Shown piece by piece: positions 8,321 to 63,791 of a stretch of DNA of 64,000 nucleotides. Each line of letters begins with the position of its first letter. Within the stretch, counting starts at the first letter, position 1. The notes below the pieces were generated by a model that worked only from the letters and a program-made list of their open reading frames with translations, was not told the origin of the DNA and searched no databases. Source of the DNA: Candidatus Poribacteria bacterium (GTDB taxonomy: Bacteria; Poribacteria; WGA-4E; WGA-3G); assembly GCA_965205015.1 (NCBI GenBank), contig OZ242029.1, positions 4,480,001-4,544,000 of the forward strand, written 5' to 3'. The position numbers were made by a program, and so were the translations under genes.

Positions 8321-9811
8321 ATGCGAATCGCAATCGGTTGCATCGGACACGAAACGAATACATTTTCACCCGTCCTAACAACCCTTGATAACTTCAACAA
8401 GGGGAGTTACCACCGGGGGGACGAAATTATCGCGGCGTTCCAAGGCACCCGGACCATTACCGGGGGTTTCCTTGATGTCGCTGAACAGCTCAATTTACAA
8501 CCCATTCCGCTCCTATGGGCGTTTGCGACACCGTCGGGTATGGTAGAACACGCCGCGTATCAGACGCTTAAAGCAGAGTTCCTAACGCTTTTACGGAACG
8601 CAGGAAAACTTGATGGCGTGCTCCTTGATCTACACGGCGCGATGGTAACAGAGGAACTCGAAGATGCCGAAGGCGACCTGATTCAGGCAGTCCGTGAGAT
8701 CGTCGGTGAAACGTGGATCGCCACCACGCTCGACTTACACGCCAATATCACCGCCAAAATGGCGCATTACTCCGACGTTATCATCGGGTTCGATACCTAT
8801 CCGCACGTAGACTGCTACGAACGCGGGTTCGAAGCCGGGCAACTGCTCTTTAGTATGAACCAAGGGAAGATTCAGCCGACGATGGCATACCGTCAACTCC
8901 CTTTATTGACCGCTCCCCCTGCGCAATGCACAATGAAACCCCCGATGACGGATGTGATCAATGCCCTGCATGATCTTGAGACCGAGCGCGGCATTGTAAC
9001 GGCAACACTCTCTATGGGTTTCCCATTTGCGGATATAACGGACGCAGGCGTTTCAGTCCTCGTTACCACCAATGGGGATATGGCACTTGCAGAGGCGCAC
9101 GCCGACCAGTTCGCATCCAATATCTGGGAGATGCATGAGGCGTTCACTTTTAACCTACACACCGTTGAAGCCGCGATCGAAATCGCCAACCAGACAGATG
9201 GTAATCCCATCGTACTCGCTGACGGCGCGGATAACCCTGGGGGTGGCGGTCCCTGTGACGGCACAACGATCTTACAGAAATTCATAGAAGCAGACGTTCA
9301 AGATGCCGTCATCGCGGTGATTGCAGATCCCGAATCGGTTGCCCAAGCGGTTGAGGTGGGTGTCGGCAACCGCGTTCAGTTGAACGTCGGTGGCAAAACA
9401 GACACGCAACACGGCGCACCCGTCGCATTGACAGGGTCCATCAAATCGCTCTCTGACGGCAGATTCATCCACAAAGGTCCTATGGGACGCGGTACCGCTG
9501 GAAACATGGGCAGAACAGCTGTCGTCCAAGTCGGTGGAATTGAGATTATCCTGACGGAGAGACGGATCCAACCTTACGATGCACAGGTTCTTCGAAGCGT
9601 TGGAATTGAGCCGAAGGCGCGTAAACTCATCGCTCTCAAATCTGCTGTCCATTTCCGGGCAGACTACACACCCATTGCGCACCAGATTTTAGACGTGGAT
9701 ACCCCTGGCGTTCACAGTCCGAACCTGTTCAATTATGACTATCAGAAGTTAAGGCGACCCATTTACCCCCTCGATCCAACTGTTCCCTATCAAAGGATAA
9801 AAAACAAGTGA
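8321..9811 (+). CDS. M81 family (MlrC-like) metallopeptidase
   Basis: HETNTFSP, LDLHGAM, TLDLHAN, TYPHVD, DGADNPGGG, LKSAVHFRADY; RBS GGGAG. Confidence 0.93.
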   Translation: MRIAIGCIGHETNTFSPVLTTLDNFNKGSYHRGDEIIAAFQGTRTITGGFLDVAEQLNLQPIPLLWAFATPSGMVEHAAYQTLKAEFLTLLRNAGKLDGVLLDLHGAMVTEELEDAEGDLIQAVREIVGETWIATTLDLHANITAKMAHYSDVIIGFDTYPHVDCYERGFEAGQLLFSMNQGKIQPTMAYRQLPLLTAPPAQCTMKPPMTDVINALHDLETERGIVTATLSMGFPFADITDAGVSVLVTTNGDMALAEAHADQFASNIWEMHEAFTFNLHTVEAAIEIANQTDGNPIVLADGADNPGGGGPCDGTTILQKFIEADVQDAVIAVIADPESVAQAVEVGVGNRVQLNVGGKTDTQHGAPVALTGSIKSLSDGRFIHKGPMGRGTAGNMGRTAVVQVGGIEIILTERRIQPYDAQVLRSVGIEPKARKLIALKSAVHFRADYTPIAHQILDVDTPGVHSPNLFNYDYQKLRRPIYPLDPTVPYQRIKNK

Positions 9812-11175
9812 CAGAAAAACGAATCACCGGAAACTACGAAATGAATCTGGTATTGACTGGGGAACCAACCACTGAACCCGTCAAAGTCTTCTTCTCTGGA
9901 GACACAGCGTTAGGCAAAAGGGCGTACCTCGCTATCTCTGCCGATGGATTCAAGATTGTCCGTGAAGTCAACACCCACACGCAAACCTTGAAGACATCCA
10001 ATAACATCGGAGAACCCCCGTGGAACGTCAGGATTCTGAAGAAAGGCAATTTTTTCAGATTCTGGGTCAACGAAACGACAAGCTGGATTCGCGGTCCCTT
10101 GGGTGAATGGGAAGGCATTTACGAACCGACCGATAACTGCCTTGGCGTTGAAACGCCGTCAGGTATCCAATCTCAATCCTGCACCGTAGCAACCCTCCCG
10201 TGGCTTCAAGAGATTACCACCCCCGTCATATCCCGGGGTCCTAAAGGCTCTTTTTATGAGAAACAGGTCATACCGGGTGCGATTATAGCGTACGACGGCT
10301 TATATTACATGTACGTCATGGTAGGCATGGCAGGCGATGAGGAGGGATCTTCAAGACGGGCAATTGGTGTAGCCGTGAGTCCGGATCTGAAGCGGTGGGA
10401 GGGGCATCTTGAACCCCTTATCTCCTATCTCGATACGCCGTATGATAATCTGTATGTCAGCGGTGCTGTCGTCACAGATGAAGGACGCATTGCCATTATG
10501 TTCTCTGCGCAGAAGTTTCCAGAGTGGCAGGGATTCATGTTAGCCATGGCCGACCATCCGATGGGTCCATTCACCCAATATGTGAAGAACCCGGTTTATA
10601 AACACCCCACGCATGCACACGAGTTCGATCTTATCCGCGCGGAAGGATTCCCGCATCGCTATCTTCTTTTCTATGCTGGATTTACCCCATCACCCCAACG
10701 CGGATCGGCAGGGGATCGCGGATATCTTCTCTACAGCGACGATTTGGTGAACTGGCACCCTGACGAACGAAACCCGGTCTTCCGTCCCGAAACGCTGGAC
10801 AATTGGGACGCGATCCACGTCCGACCGAGATCCCTGAATCGAGTCGATGATATGTGGTATCTATGGTATGAGGGCTGCAACACATGGAAACCGGAAGGTG
10901 TGTCTCATCACGGTTGGTGGGATACAGTAGGACTCGCACGTTCAAAAGACCTGGTCAACTGGGAATACTACCCGAGAAATCCAGCACTGCCCGGTCTCGG
11001 TATCAACGCCGACCAATTCGACTGCAATTGGGTCGGCTGGCCCCGTATGTTCGTCAAAGATGGTATCGGATACGTCTTTTACACAGGAAACGCCCAAGTC
11101 GGATTACGGACAATTCGGTTGGACGATCTCACCAACTGGCAGACAGAAGGCGGGCAAACATTTGATTTGCTGTAG
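9808..11175 (+). CDS. Five-bladed beta-propeller glycoside hydrolase-like protein (GH43/32/130 clan-like)
   Basis: Repeated blades IGVAVSPDLKRW, LYSDDLVNW, VGLARSKDLVNW, NPV; GTGA overlap with upstream stop. Confidence 0.65.
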   Translation: MTEKRITGNYEMNLVLTGEPTTEPVKVFFSGDTALGKRAYLAISADGFKIVREVNTHTQTLKTSNNIGEPPWNVRILKKGNFFRFWVNETTSWIRGPLGEWEGIYEPTDNCLGVETPSGIQSQSCTVATLPWLQEITTPVISRGPKGSFYEKQVIPGAIIAYDGLYYMYVMVGMAGDEEGSSRRAIGVAVSPDLKRWEGHLEPLISYLDTPYDNLYVSGAVVTDEGRIAIMFSAQKFPEWQGFMLAMADHPMGPFTQYVKNPVYKHPTHAHEFDLIRAEGFPHRYLLFYAGFTPSPQRGSAGDRGYLLYSDDLVNWHPDERNPVFRPETLDNWDAIHVRPRSLNRVDDMWYLWYEGCNTWKPEGVSHHGWWDTVGLARSKDLVNWEYYPRNPALPGLGINADQFDCNWVGWPRMFVKDGIGYVFYTGNAQVGLRTIRLDDLTNWQTEGGQTFDLL

Positions 11176-40550: not shown

Positions 40551-40886
40551 ATGGAAAAACTGATGTATCCATTCATGACACGCGTCTTATTACCAGAAGA
40601 AGGGGGCGGTTATTTAATCGAGTTTCCGGACCTTCCGGGTTGTATGTCCGATGGCGAGACGCTTGAAGAAGCCATTGAAAATGGAAAGGATGCCCTGCAG
40701 TGCTGGCTTGAAGCAGCAGCAGCAGATGGACAGGAAATACCTGAGCCGGGTTCATCGCCAACGTGGATTCAACAAGTTCCTAACCATATTCATATACAAC
40801 TGTCCCAACGGGCGGCGGCAGAAGGCATGAGCATTTCTGAACTCGTTGCCTCAATATTGGGCCAAGCCACAGATAATACAAGATGA
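40551..40886 (+). CDS. hicB: HicB family antitoxin (no adjacent HicA)
   Basis: EEGGGYLIEFPDLPGCMSDGETLEEA...IPEP plus RHH-like C-terminus. Confidence 0.88.
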   Translation: MEKLMYPFMTRVLLPEEGGGYLIEFPDLPGCMSDGETLEEAIENGKDALQCWLEAAAADGQEIPEPGSSPTWIQQVPNHIHIQLSQRAAAEGMSISELVASILGQATDNTR

Positions 40887-48526: not shown

Positions 48527-49294
48527 GTGAAAGGCACAAGACCTTTAGACAACGTTGAAATCCGTAAGGTATCAGCGGCTTTTGACGGAGCATTCACCAT
48601 TCGGAATAGAAGTCTATTCATGCTGGGTGTCTCCGTCGGTGGACGGATTAGCGAATTGATTGCACTGAAAGTGAACGACGTATGGCAGAACGACAAACCG
48701 GTTTCTGATTTGCTGTTTGATCGGAACATTGTAAAGGGCGGTGAGGTATCGAGAGCAGTGCCTGTGAACATAGACGGCAGGCAGGCAATTGAAGACCTTG
48801 TCGCTTGGCATCTTAAACTCTATGGGAATGCTGATCCAATCCGTCCACTCTTCCCTTCCCGGAAAGGACAAGGTTTGAAAGCGATGACGAGAATAGCGGC
48901 GCACGATGCGCTAAAGGGCGCGTTTGAAACGGCGGGCTTAAATGGAAAACTTGGCACGCATTCTCTACGGAAGTCTTACGCGCAACGTCTTTATGAACAG
49001 ACGAACGATATTTATGCCGTACAAGAAATGTTAGGGCATAAAAGCGTCGTAACAACACAGCGATATTTAGGTGTAAACTATGCAAGCGTTCGGGATGCAT
49101 CGGAAGCAATGTCCATTCATTCCGAATCTAACAGAAGTGTGCAAACGTTAGGTTCGGTAAATGAAGCCTCGGATGACGTGCTTTTAATCGAATTGCTCCG
49201 CAGAGGATTTGATGTCGCTCGACTACTTGAAAAGAGTGAAACAGAGCAACCTTTTTCACTTCCAGATGAAGAGACAGCAGCAAAATTCGTTTAA
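48527..49294 (+). CDS. Tyrosine recombinase/integrase (catalytic domain only)
   Basis: GGRISE (R), HSLRKS (HxxR), LGHKS (H), TQRY (Y); GTG start after AAGGAG. Confidence 0.92.
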   Translation: MKGTRPLDNVEIRKVSAAFDGAFTIRNRSLFMLGVSVGGRISELIALKVNDVWQNDKPVSDLLFDRNIVKGGEVSRAVPVNIDGRQAIEDLVAWHLKLYGNADPIRPLFPSRKGQGLKAMTRIAAHDALKGAFETAGLNGKLGTHSLRKSYAQRLYEQTNDIYAVQEMLGHKSVVTTQRYLGVNYASVRDASEAMSIHSESNRSVQTLGSVNEASDDVLLIELLRRGFDVARLLEKSETEQPFSLPDEETAAKFV

Positions 49295-49951: not shown

Positions 49952-49978
49952 CGTCGTAAAGCGAAAAAAGGTGAAAAG

Positions 49979-50006
49979 TAGGCAGGACATGTCTTTGTCC
50001 TGCCTA
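49979..50006. terminator. Terminator-like hairpin
   Basis: TAGGCAGGACA-TGTCTT-TGTCCTGCCTA perfect 11-bp stem. Confidence 0.7.
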
Positions 50007-50143
50007 TTGCATGTACGAAAATATTTCTTGAAATAATCTAAGCCGCTACAATGCCCTTATATTTTTCGGGTAGGGTTACCATAGCGGGGTATCTTTTTCA
50101 GGGGGCTTGTAGGGCATTCTCGAAAGGATTTTTTTTAGCTGCC

Positions 50144-51331
50144 CTAAAAAGCCAACCATCGGTGAAAGAGGACGCCTTTCCCTTCAGGTTCCACCACTCG
50201 TAATAAAACTTTCCCATCATTGAGAAAATCTATCGCCATGAAACCGGTATGTTGATGTGCGAATAGCGTATTGTCGCCGGACATCACTTCGGTCACTTTT
50301 CGGCTCGCCGCGGCACCACTCACGAGAAGATAATCGGTAACTTCGCCCTTCAAAACCTGCAGGGAATGTTCATGCCCAGCAGCGTAGATTAAGAGTGGCG
50401 GACCTTGCGGTGGCAATTTTCGTTTGGCAAACGCCCCGTTTAACTGCGCGACCATATTTTTGTTGTGTGTGCCGCTCAGGTCTTGATCAGATCTGTAGAG
50501 GTGCCACCGTGCGTATGGATAGATGGAACCCACTATCGGTATCGGGATCCAGAGCCATTTTTTCATAAATCTGACAGGAAAGAGGTGTGCCTTCCAGTCA
50601 TGGAAACCGCCATGGGGTCCGTAACTTTCCAGTGGATGGTGTCCGACGACGATGACGGGTAATTCCGTATCTAAGAGGGCAACGAGTTCTTCTATCACCT
50701 GTTGAGGTACTTTTTTCGGTTTCTCATGTTGATGGAGCCACCACTGCGTGTCCAGCACAACAAGCCGTACTGCGGGGTCGGTTTTCGGGAGTTCAAGGGA
50801 AACAGGACCGGGTGAGCCACCCGGTGGCAGAAAATTCGATTCACCCGCAAGCGCATCGTTGATAAACTTTTCTTGGGCAAGGACTGCACGAAGTCCCTCT
50901 GCTCGTCCACTCGCCCAATCATGGTTTCCGGGTATAAAGAGTCCGTGGGCACCCGTAGATTTGACCACGGCGAGTTGTGGCATAAGCCGAGCCGATGCTT
51001 CATGCTTCTTCCGCTCCGTCATCCCTTCGGGATACATGTTATCGCCTAAAAAGACAACACTTGTGCGTGCTGGATCCTTTTTTGCCCATTCGTCGAGCGT
51101 TTTCAGGACAGGTTCATCCGGTTCCGGCTCTCCGCCATCCCCCAGTAATAAAAGGCGGTATCGGAGTATGCCTTCCGTTTGACTCTCATGTTTCGCACTA
51201 TCGGGTATATCGGGATGGTAATACGGCTTTGTATGACTACACCCGACAATTGTCAGTTGCACTGCTTGAACAATGCAACAGAGCAGAACAATGTAACGGG
51301 TGAAGTTGGGGCGTTGATAAAATTGTTTCAT
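50144..51331 (-). CDS. Calcineurin-like metallophosphoesterase (probable lipoprotein)
   Basis: LGDGG, FLGDNMY, PGNHDW, GHHP, AGHEH; IVGC lipobox-like. Confidence 0.88.
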   Translation of the reverse strand: MKQFYQRPNFTRYIVLLCCIVQAVQLTIVGCSHTKPYYHPDIPDSAKHESQTEGILRYRLLLLGDGGEPEPDEPVLKTLDEWAKKDPARTSVVFLGDNMYPEGMTERKKHEASARLMPQLAVVKSTGAHGLFIPGNHDWASGRAEGLRAVLAQEKFINDALAGESNFLPPGGSPGPVSLELPKTDPAVRLVVLDTQWWLHQHEKPKKVPQQVIEELVALLDTELPVIVVGHHPLESYGPHGGFHDWKAHLFPVRFMKKWLWIPIPIVGSIYPYARWHLYRSDQDLSGTHNKNMVAQLNGAFAKRKLPPQGPPLLIYAAGHEHSLQVLKGEVTDYLLVSGAAASRKVTEVMSGDNTLFAHQHTGFMAIDFLNDGKVLLRVVEPEGKGVLFHRWLAF

Positions 51332-51386
51332 CTTCTAATACTCTCATGCTCCCGTTGCTATTGAGACATTCACGCAGAGAATCGCT

Positions 51387-52718
51387 TTAGGTGTCTATCC
51401 ATCGCTGAATGTGTTCAACAAGTTCTTCTCGCGGAACGATCTGTTGCTCTCTGCTTTCGAGATTCCGTATTGCCACTGTGCCTGCCTCTAATTCGTCAGA
51501 GCCGAGAATAACGGCGTACGGGATACCTTTCGTATCGGCGTATTTTATCTGTGTGCTGATACGCGTCGGACGACTGTAGACCTCTGTACGGATACTGTCT
51601 TGGCGTAGAAGCGTCGCCAATTTCAGGGATTCTTGGGCGAGTTCAGCATCGAAAACAGTAACTAATACCTGTGTCACCGTTTTACCTACGGTCGCGGGAA
51701 ACATATCAAATTCTTCCATCACGTCTATAATCCGTTCAATACCGAAACTGGTACCAGTCGCTGGATATCCCTGCTTGCTGAAACTTCCAATGAGTTCATC
51801 ATATCTCCCGCCGCCGGTGATACTCCCAATCTTCGGTTCCTCAACAACGGTTTCGTAGATCGGACCGGTATAGTATTCCAAGCCACGCACCATTGAAACG
51901 TTAATCCGATAGAACTCGTCCGGCACCCCAAGCGTTTCGAGATAGCCATTGAGTTCTTCTAATTCCACAATACCCTCTCTCGCCACTTCGGAGTCTCCGA
52001 GTTGTTCATTGAGTGCGTTCAGCACCGTCGCTGTATCACCTTCAATCTGCAGCAGTGCGAGCAGTTTTTCAATGACGGGTTCCGGAATCTGATTTTCTGC
52101 TAATTCGTCCCTGACCGCCGAAAGTCCAATTTTATCTAATTTATCAATAGACCGATAGAGTCCACCGAGTTGCTCGTCTGGCACCCCGGCGAATTGCCCG
52201 ATCCCAGTGATTAATTTTCGGTCGTTGATATTAACCTCGAATTGCTCAAAACCGAGCCGAGTGAGCACCTGATAGATGAGATTAACATTTTCAGCATCAG
52301 CGAGCATACTCTCGGTTCCTACCGTATCCGCATCGCATTGGAAGAATTGGCGATAGCGTCCTTTTTGTGGACGTTCCGCTCGCCAGACAGGATCGATCTG
52401 GTATCGCTTAAACGGTTTCGGGAGTTGTGGATGCATAGCAATAACTCGACAGAGCGGCACCGAAAGGTCGTAACGGAGAGAGATGTCCTCTTTTCCACCT
52501 ACGTGCCCTGCCTGATAGATGAGTTTCTCAGCATCCGGTCCGTATTTGCCTGTGAGGACTTCAGACAACTCAAGCGCGGGTGTTTGCAAGGGTTCAAACC
52601 CGAATTCCTCGAACACGTCTCGAATCACATCAATCACATACTGTCTACGAATCATCTGCTCAGGCAAAATGTCTCGCATCCCGCGCGGGACGCGCGGTTT
52701 AATAAAAGGGGTTGCCAT
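51387..52718 (-). CDS. hisS: Histidine--tRNA ligase
   Basis: PRGMRD, LRYDLSVP, WRAERPQKGRYRQFFQCD, RGLEYYTG, GGGRYD, FGIERI, anticodon domain. Confidence 0.95.
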   Translation of the reverse strand: MATPFIKPRVPRGMRDILPEQMIRRQYVIDVIRDVFEEFGFEPLQTPALELSEVLTGKYGPDAEKLIYQAGHVGGKEDISLRYDLSVPLCRVIAMHPQLPKPFKRYQIDPVWRAERPQKGRYRQFFQCDADTVGTESMLADAENVNLIYQVLTRLGFEQFEVNINDRKLITGIGQFAGVPDEQLGGLYRSIDKLDKIGLSAVRDELAENQIPEPVIEKLLALLQIEGDTATVLNALNEQLGDSEVAREGIVELEELNGYLETLGVPDEFYRINVSMVRGLEYYTGPIYETVVEEPKIGSITGGGRYDELIGSFSKQGYPATGTSFGIERIIDVMEEFDMFPATVGKTVTQVLVTVFDAELAQESLKLATLLRQDSIRTEVYSRPTRISTQIKYADTKGIPYAVILGSDELEAGTVAIRNLESREQQIVPREELVEHIQRWIDT

Positions 52719-52730
52719 AAGTTCGGCTCC

Positions 52731-53510
52731 TTAAATGTGCCCGGGGAGTGCCTGACTCCGCCGTCTTCGCAAACCTTTTTGGAGGGTCTGCTTCAGTTCT
52801 TCAATCTTCTCCCGTTTCCATGAATCCCTGAGTGCCTTTGGATTCGCAATGAGAGAAGATTCAGTCTCGCGCAGCAGTTCAACCACCTTGAGATTATTTG
52901 CCTTGATTGTACGCCGAGATGAAGTCGAATTGTCAATGATAGCATCCGCTTCCTCAGGAGGTTTCCCTTCAGTGGCACCGAAAGACAACATGAGTGTAAT
53001 GGGGGACTGATAAGTACCAGGAGTGTTAAGCCGCTTCCACGGTGTCAAAATCGTAGGTGCGACCTTATTTCCCGTTTTTTGAAGGATATATTTCTCGGAG
53101 ATATTTAAATATTCAGTGGAAATTCGAATGTTTCTACCCGAGAAATTCATCAAATCGTCAAACGTGTTAATGTCATCGCGTTCTTCACGAACAGCGAGGA
53201 GAATATCCATACGTCCGTATTCCAAAGGCAAGATTTCCTCAACATCCGCGTCAGTTTCTTCGACCCAATCTTGACCCGTAATTCCGACATCGTAGAAGTC
53301 ATCCATACCGACATAGACGGGTATCTCTTGGGGACGCGAAATTTTGATTTGAAATTCGTTGTCGTTGCGGAAGGTCGCGCGATAAGACCTATCCGTTTCG
53401 GTATAACCGTTGAGTTCGTAACCGGCGCGCTGAAACATCTCAAGCGTATCCGTCTGTAGACTCCCTTTCGGTAAAAGTAGTTTCAGCGTCCTTTGTGATT
53501 CCGTTTGCAT
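52731..53510 (-). CDS. hisG: ATP phosphoribosyltransferase (short form, no C-terminal regulatory domain)
   Basis: LPKGSL, RPQEIPVYV, DVGITGQDW, STEY, SFGATE; start 53510 (AGGAG RBS) or 53552. Confidence 0.88.
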   Translation of the reverse strand: MQTESQRTLKLLLPKGSLQTDTLEMFQRAGYELNGYTETDRSYRATFRNDNEFQIKISRPQEIPVYVGMDDFYDVGITGQDWVEETDADVEEILPLEYGRMDILLAVREERDDINTFDDLMNFSGRNIRISTEYLNISEKYILQKTGNKVAPTILTPWKRLNTPGTYQSPITLMLSFGATEGKPPEEADAIIDNSTSSRRTIKANNLKVVELLRETESSLIANPKALRDSWKREKIEELKQTLQKGLRRRRSQALPGHI

Positions 53511-53548
53511 TATAAATTCTCCTTCTCCTATAAAGTACTGGGAAGTAT

Positions 53549-54988
53549 TCATAGAAGATCTTCAACAGTGACCACTTGTTTATCGCCCGTTTTGATTTGA
53601 ATTCTACACATCGGTTCATCGGAGACCAAACGGAGCAGATACTTATAATTCGCTTGGCTGGCGTACTCCTGCTGTGCCTGTAGATCACGCTCCATCAAGT
53701 CTACCTCAACGTTTTTACCCGATTTCCGCAGCGTTTCTGCGAGTCGTTGTGCTTCAGCAATGCCTTCGGGCGTTTCTGCTGCGATGAAGTAGTCTCTTTT
53801 CCCGTTAACAGGGGTTGCCTCGTTTGTGTCAGTAAAGGCTTCCACAAGTGCGTCAAATTGAAACGCAAATCCAGCACCAGGTATCGACGGACCTCCGAAG
53901 GAAGCGATCAGGTTGTCGTATCTTCCACCACCACAGAGTGGTAAACGTTTTTCAGGCAATTCGATTTGAAAAACCGTACCGGTATAGAAATCGAACCCGC
54001 GTGTGATACCTAAATTGATTTCAAAATCTGTAATACCGTAGTTTTCCAGACAGGCACAGAGGACAAGTAGTTCTTGACGTGCTGCTTGCGCTGTATCGCC
54101 GAGACGCGTCTCCCACGCTGTCATCACAGTGTCCTTATCGCCACAAATCCTTGAGACATCTATACAACACTGCGCCATATCTTCGGAAACATTGAAATAA
54201 CGGTGCCATCTCGCCTTATAAGTCTCCTCAGCAATCGTTGGCAGTTGCTCCGCAACGGCGGGGGCAGTGCTTTCGGTTAATCCCCGAATCGAGGCGGTTT
54301 CAATTTTGTAATTGCCTTGGTAGTCAGCTCCTTGCAGACGACGCAGCATCGTAAGCGCATCTTGCAGCGTTTCCAGATCCCACAGTTTACTTTCGTTACG
54401 GAGACTTACAAGATGGTCAATATCCCAAATCATTTCTGCTTGGTCTTTCGGATCCAAGGCACCCTGTTTGAAAATCTCGCGAAAAACGCCTGTATTGCCA
54501 ATTCTTAACTTCGTATGTGAGACGTTGAGTCTCTCAAGGACTCGGATCGGAATCGTAATAATTTCAGCATCTGCATGGACGGAAGCCGGTCCAATAAGTT
54601 CAACACCTGCCTGCCGGAATTCCCGCTTTACTTCGGCACCATCGGTAATCGGTTCCTGTCGGACACATTGTCCGATATAGTAGAGTTTATACGGATAAGG
54701 GAGATGTTTCAGTTCACCATTAGCGATGAGTCTACAGACAGGTGCGGTCAACTCAGGTCTCAGCGCATAATCCACCCGATCCGAACCGACGAACGTGAAC
54801 ATCTTGTGCCGGATCTCTTCGCCAGATTGCGCAGATAATAGGGCAAAGGCTTCAAACAGTGGGGTCTGGACCTGTGCGTATCCATAAGTTTCAAAGGTTT
54901 CGCGAACGATGTTTTCAACGAAATTTCGCTGAACCATCTGATCGGGTAGAAAATCGTTCGTTCCAGCAGGTTTCTCAAACTTTTCCAT
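53549..54988 (-). CDS. hisZ: HisRS paralog, probable ATP phosphoribosyltransferase regulatory subunit
   Basis: LRPELTAP, REFRQAGVELIG, RGFDFYTG, GGGRYDNL, GFAF; directly upstream of short HisG with a separate canonical hisS downstream. Confidence 0.75.
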   Translation of the reverse strand: MEKFEKPAGTNDFLPDQMVQRNFVENIVRETFETYGYAQVQTPLFEAFALLSAQSGEEIRHKMFTFVGSDRVDYALRPELTAPVCRLIANGELKHLPYPYKLYYIGQCVRQEPITDGAEVKREFRQAGVELIGPASVHADAEIITIPIRVLERLNVSHTKLRIGNTGVFREIFKQGALDPKDQAEMIWDIDHLVSLRNESKLWDLETLQDALTMLRRLQGADYQGNYKIETASIRGLTESTAPAVAEQLPTIAEETYKARWHRYFNVSEDMAQCCIDVSRICGDKDTVMTAWETRLGDTAQAARQELLVLCACLENYGITDFEINLGITRGFDFYTGTVFQIELPEKRLPLCGGGRYDNLIASFGGPSIPGAGFAFQFDALVEAFTDTNEATPVNGKRDYFIAAETPEGIAEAQRLAETLRKSGKNVEVDLMERDLQAQQEYASQANYKYLLRLVSDEPMCRIQIKTGDKQVVTVEDLL

Positions 54989-55166
54989 ATTTTAATTTTT
55001 CCTTACGGTAAAATGTCAAAAAAAAAACCCAGTAAACAGCTTACTCTTTTTCTCGCGCGCATCGACAACGCGGCACGGAGGAGAGCGGCTCGTTTACCAG
55101 GGTCCAAACAAGTTAAACTTGCTTCGTATCTAAAGGTATTTATTCATTTCCCATCATCCGCTCTAC

Positions 55167-55220
55167 TCAGAAATCGACCGAATGATGGTGATGGATATTC
55201 AATGTATTCGCGTTACACAT
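55167..55220 (-). CDS. hisL: Putative his operon leader peptide MCNANTLNIHHHHSVDF
   Basis: 17-codon ORF with four consecutive His codons (55182-55193) between the promoter and hisZ. Confidence 0.8.
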   Translation of the reverse strand: MCNANTLNIHHHHSVDF

Positions 55221-55317
55221 TTTTCATTTTCGCTCGCAATGTCGGGTCCCCACCCGTTACTCGGAAGGGGTCAAACTCAATATTAAAAAGTCAGTGATTT
55301 TAATTTAATTTAATGAT

Positions 55318-55346
55318 ATTATACCTCATTGAAAGATGAATGTCAA
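55318..55346 (-). promoter_or_regulatory. Consensus sigma70 promoter of the his operon
   Basis: TTGACA-17 bp-TATAAT on the minus strand. Confidence 0.8.
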
Positions 55347-55374
55347 ATTTTTTTAGAGACCACCGAACAACACA

Positions 55375-57006
55375 ATGCAAATTAAACCTATTTACATCAT
55401 CTCTATCCTCGGTTTCCTGCTATCGGTACTCCTCTGCGGTATCTACTTTCAATTTTCCTACTTTGAACCGGACACCGTCTCGTATCTATTCCAAGCAAAG
55501 TTGTTCACCGAGGGTAAACTCTCGGTGCCAGCGCCTCCGGAACACGGGTTCTCCTCTTCCCCACATATCAACGTTCTAAACGGGAAATGGTATTCAAAAT
55601 ATCCATTCGGAAACGCCTTGATGCTGATGTTCGGTGTATTTATCAATGCCCCGTGGCTGATTCCGGCACTCGCAACGGGGGGCGCGCTGCTGCTGCTCTA
55701 TCTTTTTGTGAAAGAGATATACGGGAACATCCATCCCGGAATGGCACTCACTGCCGCGGTGCTCGCTCTCATTTCGCCAGCGACACTTGGGATGGGTTCG
55801 ACCTGGTTCAGCGAGCCCGTGAGTCGTTTCTATCTTTCGCTTTATCTCCTTACACTCCTCAGGACGCTGAATTGCCAAAAGGATGCCTCTCTCCTCGCAC
55901 GGGTCGGTTACCCACTGCTCTCAGGGTTTTCGTTGGGATACGCGTTCAATACACGCCCACTCTCGGCAGTCGTCTTTGGTGTTGTCGGCGCAGGGTTAAC
56001 ACTTTACCACCTGTTTACCCAATGGCACCATCGACACGAAGCGGTGCAAGCGGTGCCCTCTACCATAAAACGCTTAGGGTTCTTCTTTATTCCATTCGTT
56101 GTGATGCTTGGCGTGTGCATGTCATGGAACGCACATTTCACGGAAGAGCCGCTCATGTTTACACATACGGTCGCGCAGCCTTATGACAAAATCGGTTTCG
56201 GTGTTCGCACAGAAGGTTACGAACCTAATCTTGAACGGGCGTTTATTTTTACACCGGCATGGGCGATCGAAAGGACCTGGCGACACATCCTCCCGAGCAT
56301 CAGCTTTAACGCGCTCGGTTGGGGGAGCTATCACCACGATTTGTTGAAGGACATAAAATTATCAGTGACGTGGTTCGTCGCCTTTGTGCCGTTAATTCTG
56401 CCGTGGGTTCTGGTCTTTATACCTTTCTTCCACCGCTCGCGCAACAGATACGATGTGTTCTGTTTGTCCCTACTCGTCGCCAACTTGCTGCTTTACGCCT
56501 TCTTCTACTTTGAGGGTTCGACGTGGGGATTCACGCCTGTGAATGCTCGCTATTACACTGAGTCAACTTTTCTTGCGTTCATCCCATTAGCGGCGCGCGG
56601 AATATGTATCCTCAATGAACGGTTCAAACCGTTCCAAAGACGCGGGCTTGCGATTGGTGTCGGGATATGTTTTCTGTTGCTGAGCGTTAACGTGGTGTGG
56701 AGTTATGTCCGCATTGGGAAGGTGTACCAGAATTGGAGTCCTGTCTATCAGAAACTGCCACCGATGGTAGCGGAGCGGGATATTCACAATGCCGTTATTT
56801 TCGTGGCGCAACACCGAGGCGCGCCGATTGGCGATTATCCGTTTAAGGCTCTCCAAGAGGCGGACATTGTCTACTTCAAACTCGGTCCCGCACCCCGGTG
56901 GAAACTCACAAATAGTGACTGGCAGAATGTCTATGCCCAATATTTCACGGGTCGGAACGCCTATCTGTACGTGCCTCGTGAAAACAGCCTTACACATTTA
57001 AAATAA
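55375..57006 (+). CDS. GT-C fold (PMT/ArnT-like) membrane glycosyltransferase
   Basis: Multiple TM helices; EPDTVSYLFQA, SKYPFG, FNTRP, ARYYTE. Confidence 0.7.
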   Translation: MQIKPIYIISILGFLLSVLLCGIYFQFSYFEPDTVSYLFQAKLFTEGKLSVPAPPEHGFSSSPHINVLNGKWYSKYPFGNALMLMFGVFINAPWLIPALATGGALLLLYLFVKEIYGNIHPGMALTAAVLALISPATLGMGSTWFSEPVSRFYLSLYLLTLLRTLNCQKDASLLARVGYPLLSGFSLGYAFNTRPLSAVVFGVVGAGLTLYHLFTQWHHRHEAVQAVPSTIKRLGFFFIPFVVMLGVCMSWNAHFTEEPLMFTHTVAQPYDKIGFGVRTEGYEPNLERAFIFTPAWAIERTWRHILPSISFNALGWGSYHHDLLKDIKLSVTWFVAFVPLILPWVLVFIPFFHRSRNRYDVFCLSLLVANLLLYAFFYFEGSTWGFTPVNARYYTESTFLAFIPLAARGICILNERFKPFQRRGLAIGVGICFLLLSVNVVWSYVRIGKVYQNWSPVYQKLPPMVAERDIHNAVIFVAQHRGAPIGDYPFKALQEADIVYFKLGPAPRWKLTNSDWQNVYAQYFTGRNAYLYVPRENSLTHLK

Positions 57007-57042
57007 GCGTAAGACCTTCGCCTATCGCTATAGAGCAAGAAC

Positions 57043-58152
57043 CTACATTACCTGTTCCAAAATGACAATATCCCCAGGGTTCCACGATTGCGCAATGATG
57101 TAAAGTTTACCGTCAATCTTACGGATCACAGCGCCGTGTAGATGCTGGAAAGTCTCCACACCCAACTCCTCTTTTAGCATAACCGTTGAGACAAGGTTGT
57201 TGCCCTCCAAGATGTAGAGCGGCGCGCCTTTCTCTTTATTCGGTCCGAAGAGACATGCGACGACAGCATATCCTGCTTCGTAGTCAATGCTACAGGGGAA
57301 TGATCCTTTGATAAGGAAGAGTGTTTCCAAGTAGGTACCATCTGGGGAATAACGTTCAATTTCTGCGTTTGCCCGATCGGAAGCATCCAATCGCTGTGTG
57401 CCGTAAGGCACTGTAATGTGGTGTCCTGTACCGAATTGCCCCGGTTCATCACCTTTACCGCCGAATGCCAACGGATACCAACTCGCCTCAAGCGGTTCAA
57501 GGCTTGTGAGTTTCACTCCCAGAATATAATCCAAATCGGAGTACCCAGTCGTAACGTAAAGCATTCCATCAATATGCGTGATACCGGTGGGTACGAACTT
57601 CCCACCCTCACTGAAATAGGTGTTAACTGCCTGATTCTTGAAATCGGTCATTGCGTCCGGAGCTTCCAGTGTATGAACGAGCTTCCCCTCCATCGTCGTC
57701 GTGAAAATTTTGCCGACATCGTCTGCCGGGAAGGAGAGGTAAGATGCCCCGGTAGAGGTGGTCCAGACGGTTGTGTAGTGGGCATTGGCTTTTTTCAGCG
57801 CAGGAGGGGTCTCAATGCGTCGCGTCGTCTTCAGATCTGCACTGATCTGGATGATGCCGACACCAGGGAGCGCAAAATAGGTTTCACCTTTCCCTTCCCG
57901 TCGGTCTACGTCAAACCCACCGTGTGCTTCATCAATTGCGGGGACGACTTCTGGCGGAAAATGGTCGCGCGTATAGAGGACCTTGAACTTCAGCGCGCCT
58001 TGCCCACTGGTTAGCTTCATGTCAGGTGCTTCATGATGCGCTACAAACTGGAAATTTCCTGTTCCTGTTGGAGGGTGTTCTGTTACATGCGCAGAAACAC
58101 CTCCAATTATTATAAAGGTAACGGCAAAAATTAAAACGACAACCCGTTTCAT
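57043..58152 (-). CDS. Secreted NHL-like beta-propeller protein
   Basis: Signal peptide; FGGKGDEPGQFGTGH, SDRANAEIERYSPDGTYL. Confidence 0.65.
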   Translation of the reverse strand: MKRVVVLIFAVTFIIIGGVSAHVTEHPPTGTGNFQFVAHHEAPDMKLTSGQGALKFKVLYTRDHFPPEVVPAIDEAHGGFDVDRREGKGETYFALPGVGIIQISADLKTTRRIETPPALKKANAHYTTVWTTSTGASYLSFPADDVGKIFTTTMEGKLVHTLEAPDAMTDFKNQAVNTYFSEGGKFVPTGITHIDGMLYVTTGYSDLDYILGVKLTSLEPLEASWYPLAFGGKGDEPGQFGTGHHITVPYGTQRLDASDRANAEIERYSPDGTYLETLFLIKGSFPCSIDYEAGYAVVACLFGPNKEKGAPLYILEGNNLVSTVMLKEELGVETFQHLHGAVIRKIDGKLYIIAQSWNPGDIVILEQVM

Positions 58153-58989: not shown

Positions 58990-59220
58990 TTATTCAGAAT
59001 CGCTTCTTCCATCGGTTTCTTTTGATAAGGGATATGGATCTTCTTTTGTCAGTTCACCATTGGGGAGTTCATAGTAGAGGTGCCCATTGAAATCATAGAC
59101 GTTCGGAATCCCTTTTTTACGGTTTTCCTCTTGGGCTCTTTTGACGGCGCGATTACCAATCCTCAGGAACTCAAGTGTTTCTTCATAAATATCAACAGAA
59201 TCTAATTTGTCGTTGCGCAT
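58990..59220 (-). CDS. Small hypothetical protein coupled to the zeta-like kinase
   Basis: GGAGG RBS; TAATG overlap; GNRAVKRAQEENRKKGIP. Confidence 0.7.
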   Translation of the reverse strand: MRNDKLDSVDIYEETLEFLRIGNRAVKRAQEENRKKGIPNVYDFNGHLYYELPNGELTKEDPYPLSKETDGRSDSE

Positions 59221-59807
59221 TATGCACCTCCATTGCGAATATTTTGCATGAACAATTCAAAGAAATGTTCGTTTATTACCTTAATCTCATTGCCCTTACC
59301 AACGACGGTTTCCTGAAAGTGTTCCGCAGAGTTGTAAAACAAATGCCACCTATCTACCATATCTTTATAGATATACCAAAAATTGTGCTTGCTCCGATAA
59401 AAACGACGCACGACATCTTCTGTTGGCACATGGTGTCCACCCGCGCTCACTCGATTTCGTACCCGGGCAACGCATGTGTCAGCGGATTTGAGAAAAATAA
59501 AGACAATCGTGATTGTATATCCAGCACGTTTCAATTGGGAGATGATTCTCGTAAATCCTTTTCCTGAGAGTGTTACCTCAACGGCAAAGTCTTTCTCTGC
59601 TTCAATCAGCTCATGGATCTCTTTTATAAAGAGACGTCCGGCTTGAATTTTGACGCTGCCCATGTCCTCTGGTCTGGATACCAGTCTTTCCGCGATTGCA
59701 TCGGCACTGATGTATTCGGAAATCACTGAGTCGCGAAGATATTCACGAGCAAACGTCGTTTTGCCAGAACCGTTTGGACCCGCTACGACTATCACATTTT
59801 TCGACAA
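59220..59807 (-). CDS. Zeta-toxin-like P-loop kinase/ATPase
   Basis: AGPNGSGKTT, ADAIA, RVRNRVSAGGHHVP..RRFYRS. Confidence 0.85.
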   Translation of the reverse strand: MSKNVIVVAGPNGSGKTTFAREYLRDSVISEYISADAIAERLVSRPEDMGSVKIQAGRLFIKEIHELIEAEKDFAVEVTLSGKGFTRIISQLKRAGYTITIVFIFLKSADTCVARVRNRVSAGGHHVPTEDVVRRFYRSKHNFWYIYKDMVDRWHLFYNSAEHFQETVVGKGNEIKVINEHFFELFMQNIRNGGA

Positions 59808-62282: not shown

Positions 62283-63791
62283 ATGGCGGATAAATCAACT
62301 ATAATTGGAGAGGTTTTTACCCCGCTGAAATGGGCAAAATGGCTCATCGACAAGTGGGATATTCTCAACGCCTGGATTGATGGGGCACACATCTGCGACC
62401 CAACAGCAGGAAAAGGGGCATTCATCCTCGCGCTTCTGGAGATCGCACGTTATAGAGGGGTCCCTATCACCTCTGACCGTCTATCACGCCTAACGCTCAT
62501 TGAGAGGAACGCTGCCCATCTGGCATGCTTTAGAAACAACGTCAAACAAGAATTCGGTGTTGACTTCCCAGCCTCCCAACTCTTCTGCCAAGATGTAATC
62601 ATGGAACCGCACGCGGGAAAATATGACATTCTTATTGGGAACCCGCCGTGGGTGAATTTCGCGGATCTGCCATCGGATTACAAAGCGCGTGTAAAGCCTT
62701 TTTTTCTCGCAGAAGGGCTGATGCCAGACAGGCAGCAATTGCTCTTAGGTTCCTCTCGTATCGACATCGCCGCACTCGTTCTAAAGATCGCTCTCGGTCA
62801 ATTGCTAAAAGAGAACGGGGTTGGGTATTTCTATCTCCCATTGTCCCTCTTTTTCGGTGATGGTGCACATAGTGGTTTTAGAAATTATCGCGCACATCAA
62901 CGCGATTTCGCCGTAGATACGGTCTATGAATTCGCATCAACCCAAGTATTTAAAGGGGTCAACACATCATACTGTTGCGCTAAATTTCGGTGCGATACGC
63001 GTCAGACTTTCCCAGTTCCATATTTCAGGGAATTGAGTGGAAAATGGACTGAACATAAGGCTGTCCCACTTAACGATTCTGCAGACCTATGGCGGGTTGT
63101 GAGGAACCTCAACGAACTGAATACAGGTACAACCGTTGACCTTAACTTGTCCCCGGCACAAACACCGCGACAGGGTGTGAACACATGCGGTACCAACAGC
63201 ATTTTTATTTTTGAAGATAAGCCTTCACACCTCCCTGAAGCATTTTTGTATCCACTTGCAACAAAGGAAACTTGGCGACAATCGGCATCCTCCGCCCATA
63301 AATGGATACTGCTACCGTATCATCGGGAAACCGGAAAACCGCTCACGCAGCATCAGATTGACCAGCATGTTTCTTTAAAGGAATACCTCCAGAGTGCTGA
63401 AGAGGTGTTACGATCGCGGAAGGGAACGCTTCTCCGAGCGGCGATTGATAGAGGCTATTGGTGGGCACTGCTCGGTGTCGGTCCCTATTCGTTTGCACCG
63501 TTCAAAGTGATGTGGGAGGCATATGGGAGAAGTCGGTTTAACCCAATTGTGCTGAATGATATAGATGGACAGGCGTGGCAAGGCAACCAGTCGATGCATG
63601 CGTTCATCCCGTGCTGGTCTGAAGATGCCGCACAGCGGATTAAAGAAACCCTTGAGAACCCCCAAATTCCGACGCTATTACGGCAGCTCAATGGTGCGGG
63701 TAAACGCAATTGGGCACAACCGGGGAAAATTAAAAAGATTCTTTCATTTAGAGAATCACATGACACGCGAAAGGATCAGGTGTATACATGA
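62283..63791 (+). CDS. SAM-dependent DNA amino-methyltransferase (gamma-type motif order), orphan
   Basis: GEVFTP (motif X), DPTAGKGAF (motif I), ILIGNPPW (motif IV). Confidence 0.82.
   Translation: MADKSTIIGEVFTPLKWAKWLIDKWDILNAWIDGAHICDPTAGKGAFILALLEIARYRGVPITSDRLSRLTLIERNAAHLACFRNNVKQEFGVDFPASQLFCQDVIMEPHAGKYDILIGNPPWVNFADLPSDYKARVKPFFLAEGLMPDRQQLLLGSSRIDIAALVLKIALGQLLKENGVGYFYLPLSLFFGDGAHSGFRNYRAHQRDFAVDTVYEFASTQVFKGVNTSYCCAKFRCDTRQTFPVPYFRELSGKWTEHKAVPLNDSADLWRVVRNLNELNTGTTVDLNLSPAQTPRQGVNTCGTNSIFIFEDKPSHLPEAFLYPLATKETWRQSASSAHKWILLPYHRETGKPLTQHQIDQHVSLKEYLQSAEEVLRSRKGTLLRAAIDRGYWWALLGVGPYSFAPFKVMWEAYGRSRFNPIVLNDIDGQAWQGNQSMHAFIPCWSEDAAQRIKETLENPQIPTLLRQLNGAGKRNWAQPGKIKKILSFRESHDTRKDQVYT

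Follow-up and report, generated by a model that had tools for sequence, protein, structure and literature searches.

A probable ribosome-mediated histidine attenuator upstream of hisZ-hisG-hisS in Candidatus Poribacteria

Upstream of hisZ, hisG and hisS in an uncultured, sponge-associated member of Candidatus Poribacteria lies an element that is very probably a classical ribosome-mediated leader-peptide transcription attenuator sensing charged tRNA-His. It was recognised in a 64-kb stretch of contig OZ242029.1 (hereafter the window, in whose coordinates positions are given), where the attenuator and the his genes all occupy the minus strand. Of 72 related loci, 68 have the whole arrangement, and the minimum-free-energy (MFE) fold of the leader (55312-54989, -86.9 kcal/mol) beats all 100 dinucleotide shuffles (z = -2.9). 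An earlier sequence-only reading of the window had proposed the logic of hisL attenuation, and this proposal is supported by conservation of the His run, by lengths of the leader open reading frame (ORF) that differ by whole codons, by the position of its stop codon and by folds computed with a ribosome footprint. What is new is the lineage and the set of genes; the mechanism is textbook and nothing is overturned. The parts of the element, in the order of transcription, are these:

55318..55354, minus strand: sigma-70 promoter, with a run of seven A (55354-55348), TTGACA (55346-55341), a 17-nt spacer and TATAAT (55323-55318)
55167..55220, minus strand: leader ORF MCNANTLNIHHHHSVDF of 17 codons, from ATG at 55220 to TGA at 55169-55167, read directly
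55182..55193, minus strand: tandem putative regulatory His codons CAT CAC CAT CAT, read directly
55179..55188, minus strand: region 1, CCAUCAUUCG, covering His codons 2-4 and Ser, the 5' strand of the 1:2 hairpin in the MFE fold
55158..55168, minus strand: antiterminator 5' strand GAGUAGAGCGG, which begins within the leader stop UGA, from constrained folds
55151..55160, minus strand: region 2, CGGAUGAUGG, the 3' strand of the 1:2 hairpin, overlapping the antiterminator 5' strand at 55160-55158
55078..55088, minus strand: region 3, CCGCUCUCCUC, 3' strand of the antiterminator, which doubles as the 5' side of the terminator middle stem
55018..55101, minus strand: intrinsic terminator, a 74-nt three-part hairpin (55101-55028, -32.7 kcal/mol) followed by U10 (55027-55018)

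In the mechanism proposed here, RNA polymerase would start at the sigma-70 consensus promoter and the emerging leader ORF would be translated at once. When His-tRNA is ample, the ribosome would reach the UGA and its footprint would cover the antiterminator 5' strand GAGUAGAGCGG, because the stop codon is the first part of that strand; with GAGUAGAGCGG blocked, the 74-nt hairpin and U10 would form, and most transcripts would end 29 nt short of hisZ. Under scarcity of His-tRNA, the ribosome would stall on the His codons, open the 1:2 hairpin and free the strand past the stop codon, which would pair with CCGCUCUCCUC and in most relatives would engage CCCU at the base of the terminator as well. 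The terminator hairpin would then be unable to close, and RNA polymerase would continue into hisZ-hisG-hisS. If the leader is not translated at all, the 1:2 hairpin should sequester region 2, with termination as the expected outcome.

Leader peptide and promoter among the relatives

Close homologues of the HisZ-like protein encoded in the window carry the name Candidatus Poribacteria in a protein search, and the domains found in the rest of the window (sulfatase, PhyH, planctomycete PSD/PSCyt, ankyrin, TPR and Laminin_G_3) are consistent with that origin. Representative genomes were scanned with Poribacteria-specific HisZ motifs, taken from an alignment of 13 of the 120 listed homologues. The scan yielded 75 loci. 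In 72 of them the HisZ-like protein has 58-91% identity; the titles of 70 name Poribacteria, those of 2 an 'uncultured bacterium'. The remaining three are distant hisS loci of Phocaeicola and Eggerthellaceae. Upstream of hisZ, 68 of the 72 related loci have a short in-frame ORF that starts with ATG and contains HHH or HHHH, and none of the three distant loci has one. The four related loci without it are all truncated by the end of a contig: L027 and L056, which begin inside the attenuator, L021, which has only 36 nt upstream, and L035, whose 276 nt without an attenuator fall within the spacer lengths of other loci. The 68 loci and the window make up the leader set of 69 sequences, divided into group A (n=45, including the window) and group B (n=24).

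The 17-codon leader with CAT CAC CAT CAT described in the sequence-only reading is present in the window exactly as described, and all 68 complete orthologous leaders keep the His run in frame. Group A peptides end in HHHHSVHF and are typically 17 codons long, and group B peptides end in HHHS[IV]H[SCTF] with a typical length of 13-15 codons; L070 and L071 read HHHPFHA. Across the 69 sequences the His positions vary only between CAT and CAC, which are synonymous, and the residues N-terminal of the His run vary freely. Insertions and deletions are of whole codons, giving a length of 13-18 codons in 66 sequences and 25-26 codons in three that have lost the stop. The stop codon stands exactly four codons past the His run in 65 of the 69 and one codon later in L038. 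In the three stop-loss sequences (L004, L005 and L007) the leader TGA has become TGG and the ORF is 8-9 codons longer (…HHHHSVHFWVERMRGK); these extended ORFs cross the antiterminator 5' strand and end at TAA, and they constitute a natural variant of the stop position. The kept frame and stop position, the whole-codon indels and the restriction of changes to CAT/CAC are signs in the sequence that point to translation of the leader.

The perfect TTGACA-17-TATAAT promoter noted earlier is likewise there on direct reading, with a score of 12/12, and it is the sole 12/12 site found by a promoter scan of 50000-58000. The same interval holds only three promoter-like sites, fewer than the shuffle mean of 9.0, and since the site count lies under that mean the consensus match alone proves nothing; it is the conservation of the promoter that counts. 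Of the 66 leaders with 130 nt or more of sequence upstream, 65 have TTGAC[AT]-N16-18-TATAAT, the exception being L053. Transcription would be expected to start near 55311-55314.

Terminator, antiterminator and predicted switching

The base stem of the terminator consists of CCUGGUAAAC (55101-55092) and GUUUACUGGG (55037-55028), with a middle and an apical stem above it, and the middle stem takes in GCUCU of region 3. The U10 tract seen in the sequence-only reading is confirmed and lies 29 nt upstream of the hisZ-like ATG at 54988. That reading had also placed a weak stem, AGUAAG/UUUACU, next to the U-tract, and here it was wrong: the base of the strong 74-nt hairpin occupies this position, and with a terminator of that strength the accompanying worry over a non-canonical output is unsupported. 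A long hairpin followed by U6-12 occurs in all 69 sequences, at -21.6 to -38.7 kcal/mol and 111-160 nt 3' of the leader stop. Pairing was compared with controls in which the partner strand was slid, and covariation scores with those of 500 shuffles. In the alignment of the 69 leader sequences (A3), pairing in the base and apical stems amounts to 96.2%, and to 22-50% in the slid controls; six pairs have changed on both sides, and none of the 500 shuffles matches the covariation score.

The run of U is separated from hisZ by 24-539 nt across the relatives (54989-55017 in the window), with unrelated and often hairpin-rich insertions, and because this spacer varies while the attenuator parts stay, the attenuator is regarded as a self-contained module. 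Despite a leader peptide identical to that of the window, L003 has a spacer of 219 nt as against 29 nt. A motif search found no second copy of the attenuator in the window and at most one copy in any locus, the stricter motif used for this search matching nothing in 13 of the 72 Poribacteria loci, where the sequence deviates or is cut.

It might be supposed that there is no regulation here at all, with the hairpin as a plain terminator or a leftover structure and the His ORF as a product of chance. A simple terminator scan, whose rules ask for a short uninterrupted stem and a loop of 3-8, did fail to list the 74-nt hairpin, which is in keeping with such a supposition. The terminator is not that of another gene, however, because the gene upstream (55375-57006) is divergent, on the plus strand, and leaves no same-strand gene to terminate; it stands between a conserved promoter and hisZ, and all parts are conserved across HisZ identities of 58-91% while the spacer to hisZ varies freely in length. 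This explanation is hardly credible.

The two competing helices of the attenuator were proposed in the sequence-only reading, and both complementarities are present in the sequence. Pairing of CCAUCAUUCG with CGGAUGAUGG gives a perfect 10-bp helix that is present in the MFE fold, and AGAGCGG (55164-55158) can pair with CCGCUCU (55088-55082) as was described; the two are mutually exclusive in that they share G55160-G55158. Among the relatives the 1:2 hairpin is kept in two registers, with 359 of 360 cells paired in group A and 302 of 312 paired in group B in its own register; group A placed in group B's register has only 325 of 585 cells paired. The group B hairpin is 96.8% paired and includes two pairs with changes in both partners; its score is reached by 14 of 500 shuffles. 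The 10-bp core of the antiterminator is 97.0% paired across 67 distinct sequences, and the 15-bp antiterminator of group B has 92.5% of its cells paired, the slid controls for the two together giving 32-69%. Region 3 is nearly invariant in alignments A2 and A3, which its need for two partners may account for.

Folding of the leader with and without a ribosome footprint was carried out on transcripts cut 8 nt past region 3, with a 28-nt footprint masked, for 68 sequences (L067 was missed by the motif search). The structure switches in these cut transcripts as the attenuation model predicts. An antiterminator of 12 bp or more is part of the MFE structure in 61 of 68 sequences when the ribosome occupies the first His codon, in 62 of 68 when it occupies the last one, and in none of the 68 when it stands at the stop codon, where 7-10 residual pairs persist in 17 sequences. 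The antiterminator helix formed with a stalled ribosome has a median length of 16 bp, with 10 bp in the window, and in group A it also engages CCCU of the terminator base stem. In these models the stop codon appears to stand where a ribosome that terminates on it would block the antiterminator, and one stalled on the His codons would leave it free.

Several results weigh against reading the element as a ribosome-operated switch. Folded at equilibrium, the full leader adopts the terminator as its MFE structure whatever is masked, and as the equilibrium fold is always the terminator, the switch must be kinetic. Without a ribosome, an antiterminator of at least 12 bp forms in 26-27 of the 68 cut transcripts; the untranslated state is thus ambiguous in silico, and termination in it would need the local 1:2 hairpin to form first. 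The group B antiterminator abuts the terminator base stem and shares one base only with it. As a control the 27-nt region 2 was shuffled: of 680 folds, 146 still reached 12 bp or more, 241 reached 10 bp or more and 395 reached 7 bp or more, and the pairing of region 2 with region 3 is partly due to composition, purine-rich against pyrimidine-rich. Covariation in the antiterminator does not exceed that of shuffles, 142 of 500 and 65 of 500 reaching the observed scores (49 of 500 in group B), and because both strands are almost invariant, covariation is silent on this helix either way. The full three-stem terminator shows no covariation beyond shuffles in group B. Finally, a Shine-Dalgarno-like 4-mer is present at -20 to -4 of the leader ATG in none of the 69 sequences (for comparison, in 40 of 69 for hisZ and in 26 of 44 long ORFs of the window), and initiation on the leader is assumed to depend on a conserved A-rich context, GAAAAAUG.

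The missing Shine-Dalgarno-like motif would also suit a switch that is real but is read by a trans factor, either uncharged tRNA-His or an RNA-binding protein, with the ORF incidental. The His codons double as a conserved helix strand, so selection at the level of the RNA could keep them, and in Firmicutes hisS is under T-boxes according to the available text of one survey (PMC2965389). Searches of Rfam found no T-box or His_leader match at E up to 10 in 54700-55700, and none at the gathering score in the window or in eight related loci. Identity with either family was accordingly rejected for want of a covariance-model match, and the only matches at E up to 10, to snoRNA and RNA-OUT families, are attributed to chance. 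A trans factor would moreover leave the coding features of the leader to coincidence: an ATG, an open frame and a stop four codons past the His run are kept in 65 of the 69 sequences, the ORF gains and loses whole codons and changes its His codons synonymously, and a stop codon within the antiterminator strand makes sense only for a ribosome. Reading by a trans factor is thus quite improbable.

The his genes and known systems of histidine attenuation

Three genes follow the attenuator in the window:

53549..54988, minus strand: hisZ-like paralogue of histidine-tRNA ligase (HisRS), 479 aa, with AAGGA 11 nt 5' of its ATG
52731..53552, minus strand: hisG, short-form ATP phosphoribosyltransferase, 273 aa (TIGR00070, 118 bits, above cut-off)
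51387..52718, minus strand: hisS, histidine-tRNA ligase, 443 aa (TIGR00442, 393.5 bits, above cut-off)

The identities of hisG and hisS are straightforward, the former having PF01634 only and no HisG_C domain, the latter tRNA-synt_His together with HGTP_anticodon. The 479-aa protein is unusually long for a HisZ-like protein. NCBIfam gives it 276.6 bits for hisS and 222.9 bits for hisZ, both just below cut-off, and its PDB matches mix HisRS and HisZ, the C-terminal part aligning with the C-terminal region of HisRS chains, so that these two sources are undecided between HisZ and HisRS. Pfam matches tRNA-synt_His in two stretches, which suggests an insertion of about 100 aa or more, and finds no anticodon-binding domain. 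It is taken here as the product of hisZ because of the adjacent short-form hisG, the lack of an anticodon domain, the presence of a true hisS in the cluster and the name of a relative, an 89%-identical protein called 'ATP phosphoribosyltransferase regulatory subunit' by its source.

The sequence-only reading held that one attenuator controls both hisZG and hisS, and this finds support in gene order, in the close spacing of the genes and in the lack of promoter-like sites between them. The start of hisG overlaps the stop of hisZ by 4 nt. In the window hisG and hisS are separated by 12 nt, the hisG stop being followed at once by GGAG; most loci have a separation of 12-21 nt, and a few one of 100-313 nt. 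A hisS gene comes next to hisG, in the same orientation, in 68 of the 72 loci, or 68 of the 69 that can be evaluated, as the sequences of L023, L036 and L071 stop at hisG or shortly past it. Scanning of the minus strand found neither promoter-like nor terminator-like sites between leader and hisS, and no promoter-like sites inside the genes in 50000-55300. On these sequence grounds hisS is likely to be transcribed together with hisZ-hisG and co-regulated with them by the one attenuator.

HisRS is essential, and a further difficulty for the attenuator reading is that either substantial read-through or an undetected hisS promoter must supply it. This difficulty is the starting point for an alternative in which the attenuator is real but governs hisZ-hisG only, hisS being expressed mainly from a promoter of its own inside or after hisG and the clustering reflecting the history of the paralogues. 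HisRS would be needed when histidine is plentiful, which is precisely when the attenuator terminates; the longer hisG-hisS gaps (e.g. L005, L007, L022, L040, L041, L068 and L070) could hold a promoter; and in L026 the position of hisS after hisG is taken by a gene for an ABC-2 family membrane protein (8623-10038). The short gap of most loci, the near-constant gene order and the absence of intergenic terminator-like and internal promoter-like sites all tell against it, and a perfect-consensus promoter combined with partial termination could give a basal level of hisS. Restriction of the attenuator to hisZ-hisG is therefore considered unlikely. The broader proposal, that a single sensor of His-tRNA and one promoter set both the HisZ/HisG entry step and HisRS, and have done so since before the known Poribacteria diverged, is put forward tentatively, as something a little short of probable.

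The enterobacterial hisL attenuator, which has seven consecutive His codons and is represented in Rfam as His_leader, RF00514, works by the logic proposed here. The Poribacteria element shares with hisL of E. coli and Salmonella a short leader ORF in which His codons stand in tandem and an intrinsic terminator ahead of the first his gene; in the proposed mechanism it would also share hairpins that exclude each other and are chosen by the position of the ribosome, and control of an ATP phosphoribosyltransferase gene. Unlike hisL, its leader has 3-4 consecutive His codons and, in most sequences, one more two codons on, its terminator is a 74-nt three-part hairpin, and the unit controlled is hisZ-hisG-hisS rather than hisGDCBHAFI. 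A synthetase operon under a leader peptide rich in the cognate amino acid has a precedent in the E. coli pheST attenuator with its pheM leader, which differs in the amino acid concerned and in having no biosynthetic gene in the operon.

Functional parallels are found in Firmicutes. In bacilli, according to the available text of Naville and Gautheret, hisZ and the hisS paralogue hisS* are each preceded by a His leader peptide (PMC2965389); that of a 2022 study in BMC Genomics (authors including Vitreschak, Gelfand and Rodionov; PMC9413887) places His-leader attenuators in the B. cereus group, Peptostreptococcaceae and Erysipelotrichales; control of hisZ by a His leader is also cited for C. difficile and the B. 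cereus group in the accessible part of a third source (PMC4833913). Common to bacilli, as far as these texts describe them, and, in the reading proposed here, to Poribacteria are a His-codon leader with a terminator/antiterminator before hisZ and a HisRS-family gene under a His leader. They differ in that bacilli have separate, similar leaders for hisZ and hisS*, whereas in Poribacteria one leader precedes hisZ, hisG and the canonical hisS. The comparison with Firmicutes leaders is one of functional description only, as given in the available portions of PMC2965389 and PMC9413887. With the Firmicutes hisS T-box, as summarised there, the element would have in common the induction of a HisRS gene by uncharged tRNA-His through a choice between terminator and antiterminator; the T-box binds the tRNA directly and free of translation, whereas the Poribacteria element has a conserved translatable His ORF.

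A histidine attenuator in Poribacteria has apparently not been described before. Literature searches found no attenuator or His leader peptide in this phylum, most subscription journals lying outside the search, which agrees with the statement in the sequence-only reading that no description was known in this lineage; the papers listed for leader peptides in Poribacteria deal, to judge from titles and the openings of abstracts, with natural products or RiPPs; at the level of titles and abstracts, no such element was found either for attenuation of a hisZ-hisG-hisS operon or for histidine attenuation in Planctomycetes. If the interpretation is correct, leader-peptide attenuation would extend beyond the Proteobacteria, Actinobacteria and Firmicutes named in the available text of PMC2965389, and a HisRS gene and its regulatory paralogue hisZ would stand under one His sensor. 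Because such an attenuator works only if ribosomes trail RNA polymerase closely, its presence throughout the phylum would imply that they do so in Poribacteria, and its conservation would be genetic evidence of transcription-translation coupling in an uncultured phylum. This is a modest inference, in a group for which a compartmentalised, possibly nucleus-like cell plan was once postulated and later revised, according to the accessible text of PMC3909097. As a sequence-defined element in a phylum without a cultured member, the attenuator could be annotated in sponge metagenomes with a covariance model of the 69 aligned leaders, and the ratio of leader to gene coverage in metatranscriptomes could report histidine limitation of the symbionts in situ.

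Smaller features of the leader and its surroundings

Two small hairpins accompany the attenuator in the window:

55248..55270, minus strand: small hairpin CCCCUUCCGAGUAACGGGUGGGG in the 5' untranslated region, 5' of the leader ORF, from the MFE fold
55108..55122, minus strand: small conserved hairpin GCAAGUUUAACUUGU between region 2 and the terminator, from fold and alignment

The hairpin GCAAGUUUAACUUGU has 223 of 225 cells paired in group A and 105 of 120 in group B. The hairpin CCCCUUCCGAGUAACGGGUGGGG is, in the alignment, a variable insert outside the conserved core, present only in some group A leaders, and it looks like an inserted palindromic element. A similar small hairpin (CCTTCC..GTAACGGGTGG..) sits 3' of the terminator in L047 (5859-5878), L022 and L025. 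The idea that the hairpin motif CCTTCCSRGTAACGGGTGGG forms a repeat family within the window was rejected, as it has one match only. Antisense to the whole leader runs a plus-strand ORF of 94 aa (55013-55297), which is probably not a gene: its frame is unconserved, the longest antisense stretch left open in relatives being 66 aa in the median and 28 aa at the least.

Downstream of hisS are two further features that bear on the end of the transcript:

50144..51331, minus strand: ORF of 395 aa with a weak metallophosphoesterase match (Pfam Metallophos, 26.3 bits), 55 nt 3' of hisS
49964..50006, minus strand: candidate end-of-operon terminator, UAGGCAGGAC-loop-GUCCUGCCUA with a U-rich tail, read by eye

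In the 55-nt gap between hisS and the 395-aa ORF no hairpin with a run of U was seen, and this ORF may be the last gene of the his transcript. It follows hisS directly in many relatives, and about 1.8 kb is inserted at this point in others. Among the 51 long ORFs of the window there are no further his genes. The window also contains a HicB-like antitoxin ORF (40551-40886), an Eco57I-type methylase-like ORF (62283-63791), a Zeta-toxin/AAA_33 kinase-like ORF (59220-59807) that adjoins a radical SAM/SPASM gene, and, about 850 nt past the end of the his cluster, an ORF of the phage integrase family (48527-49294).

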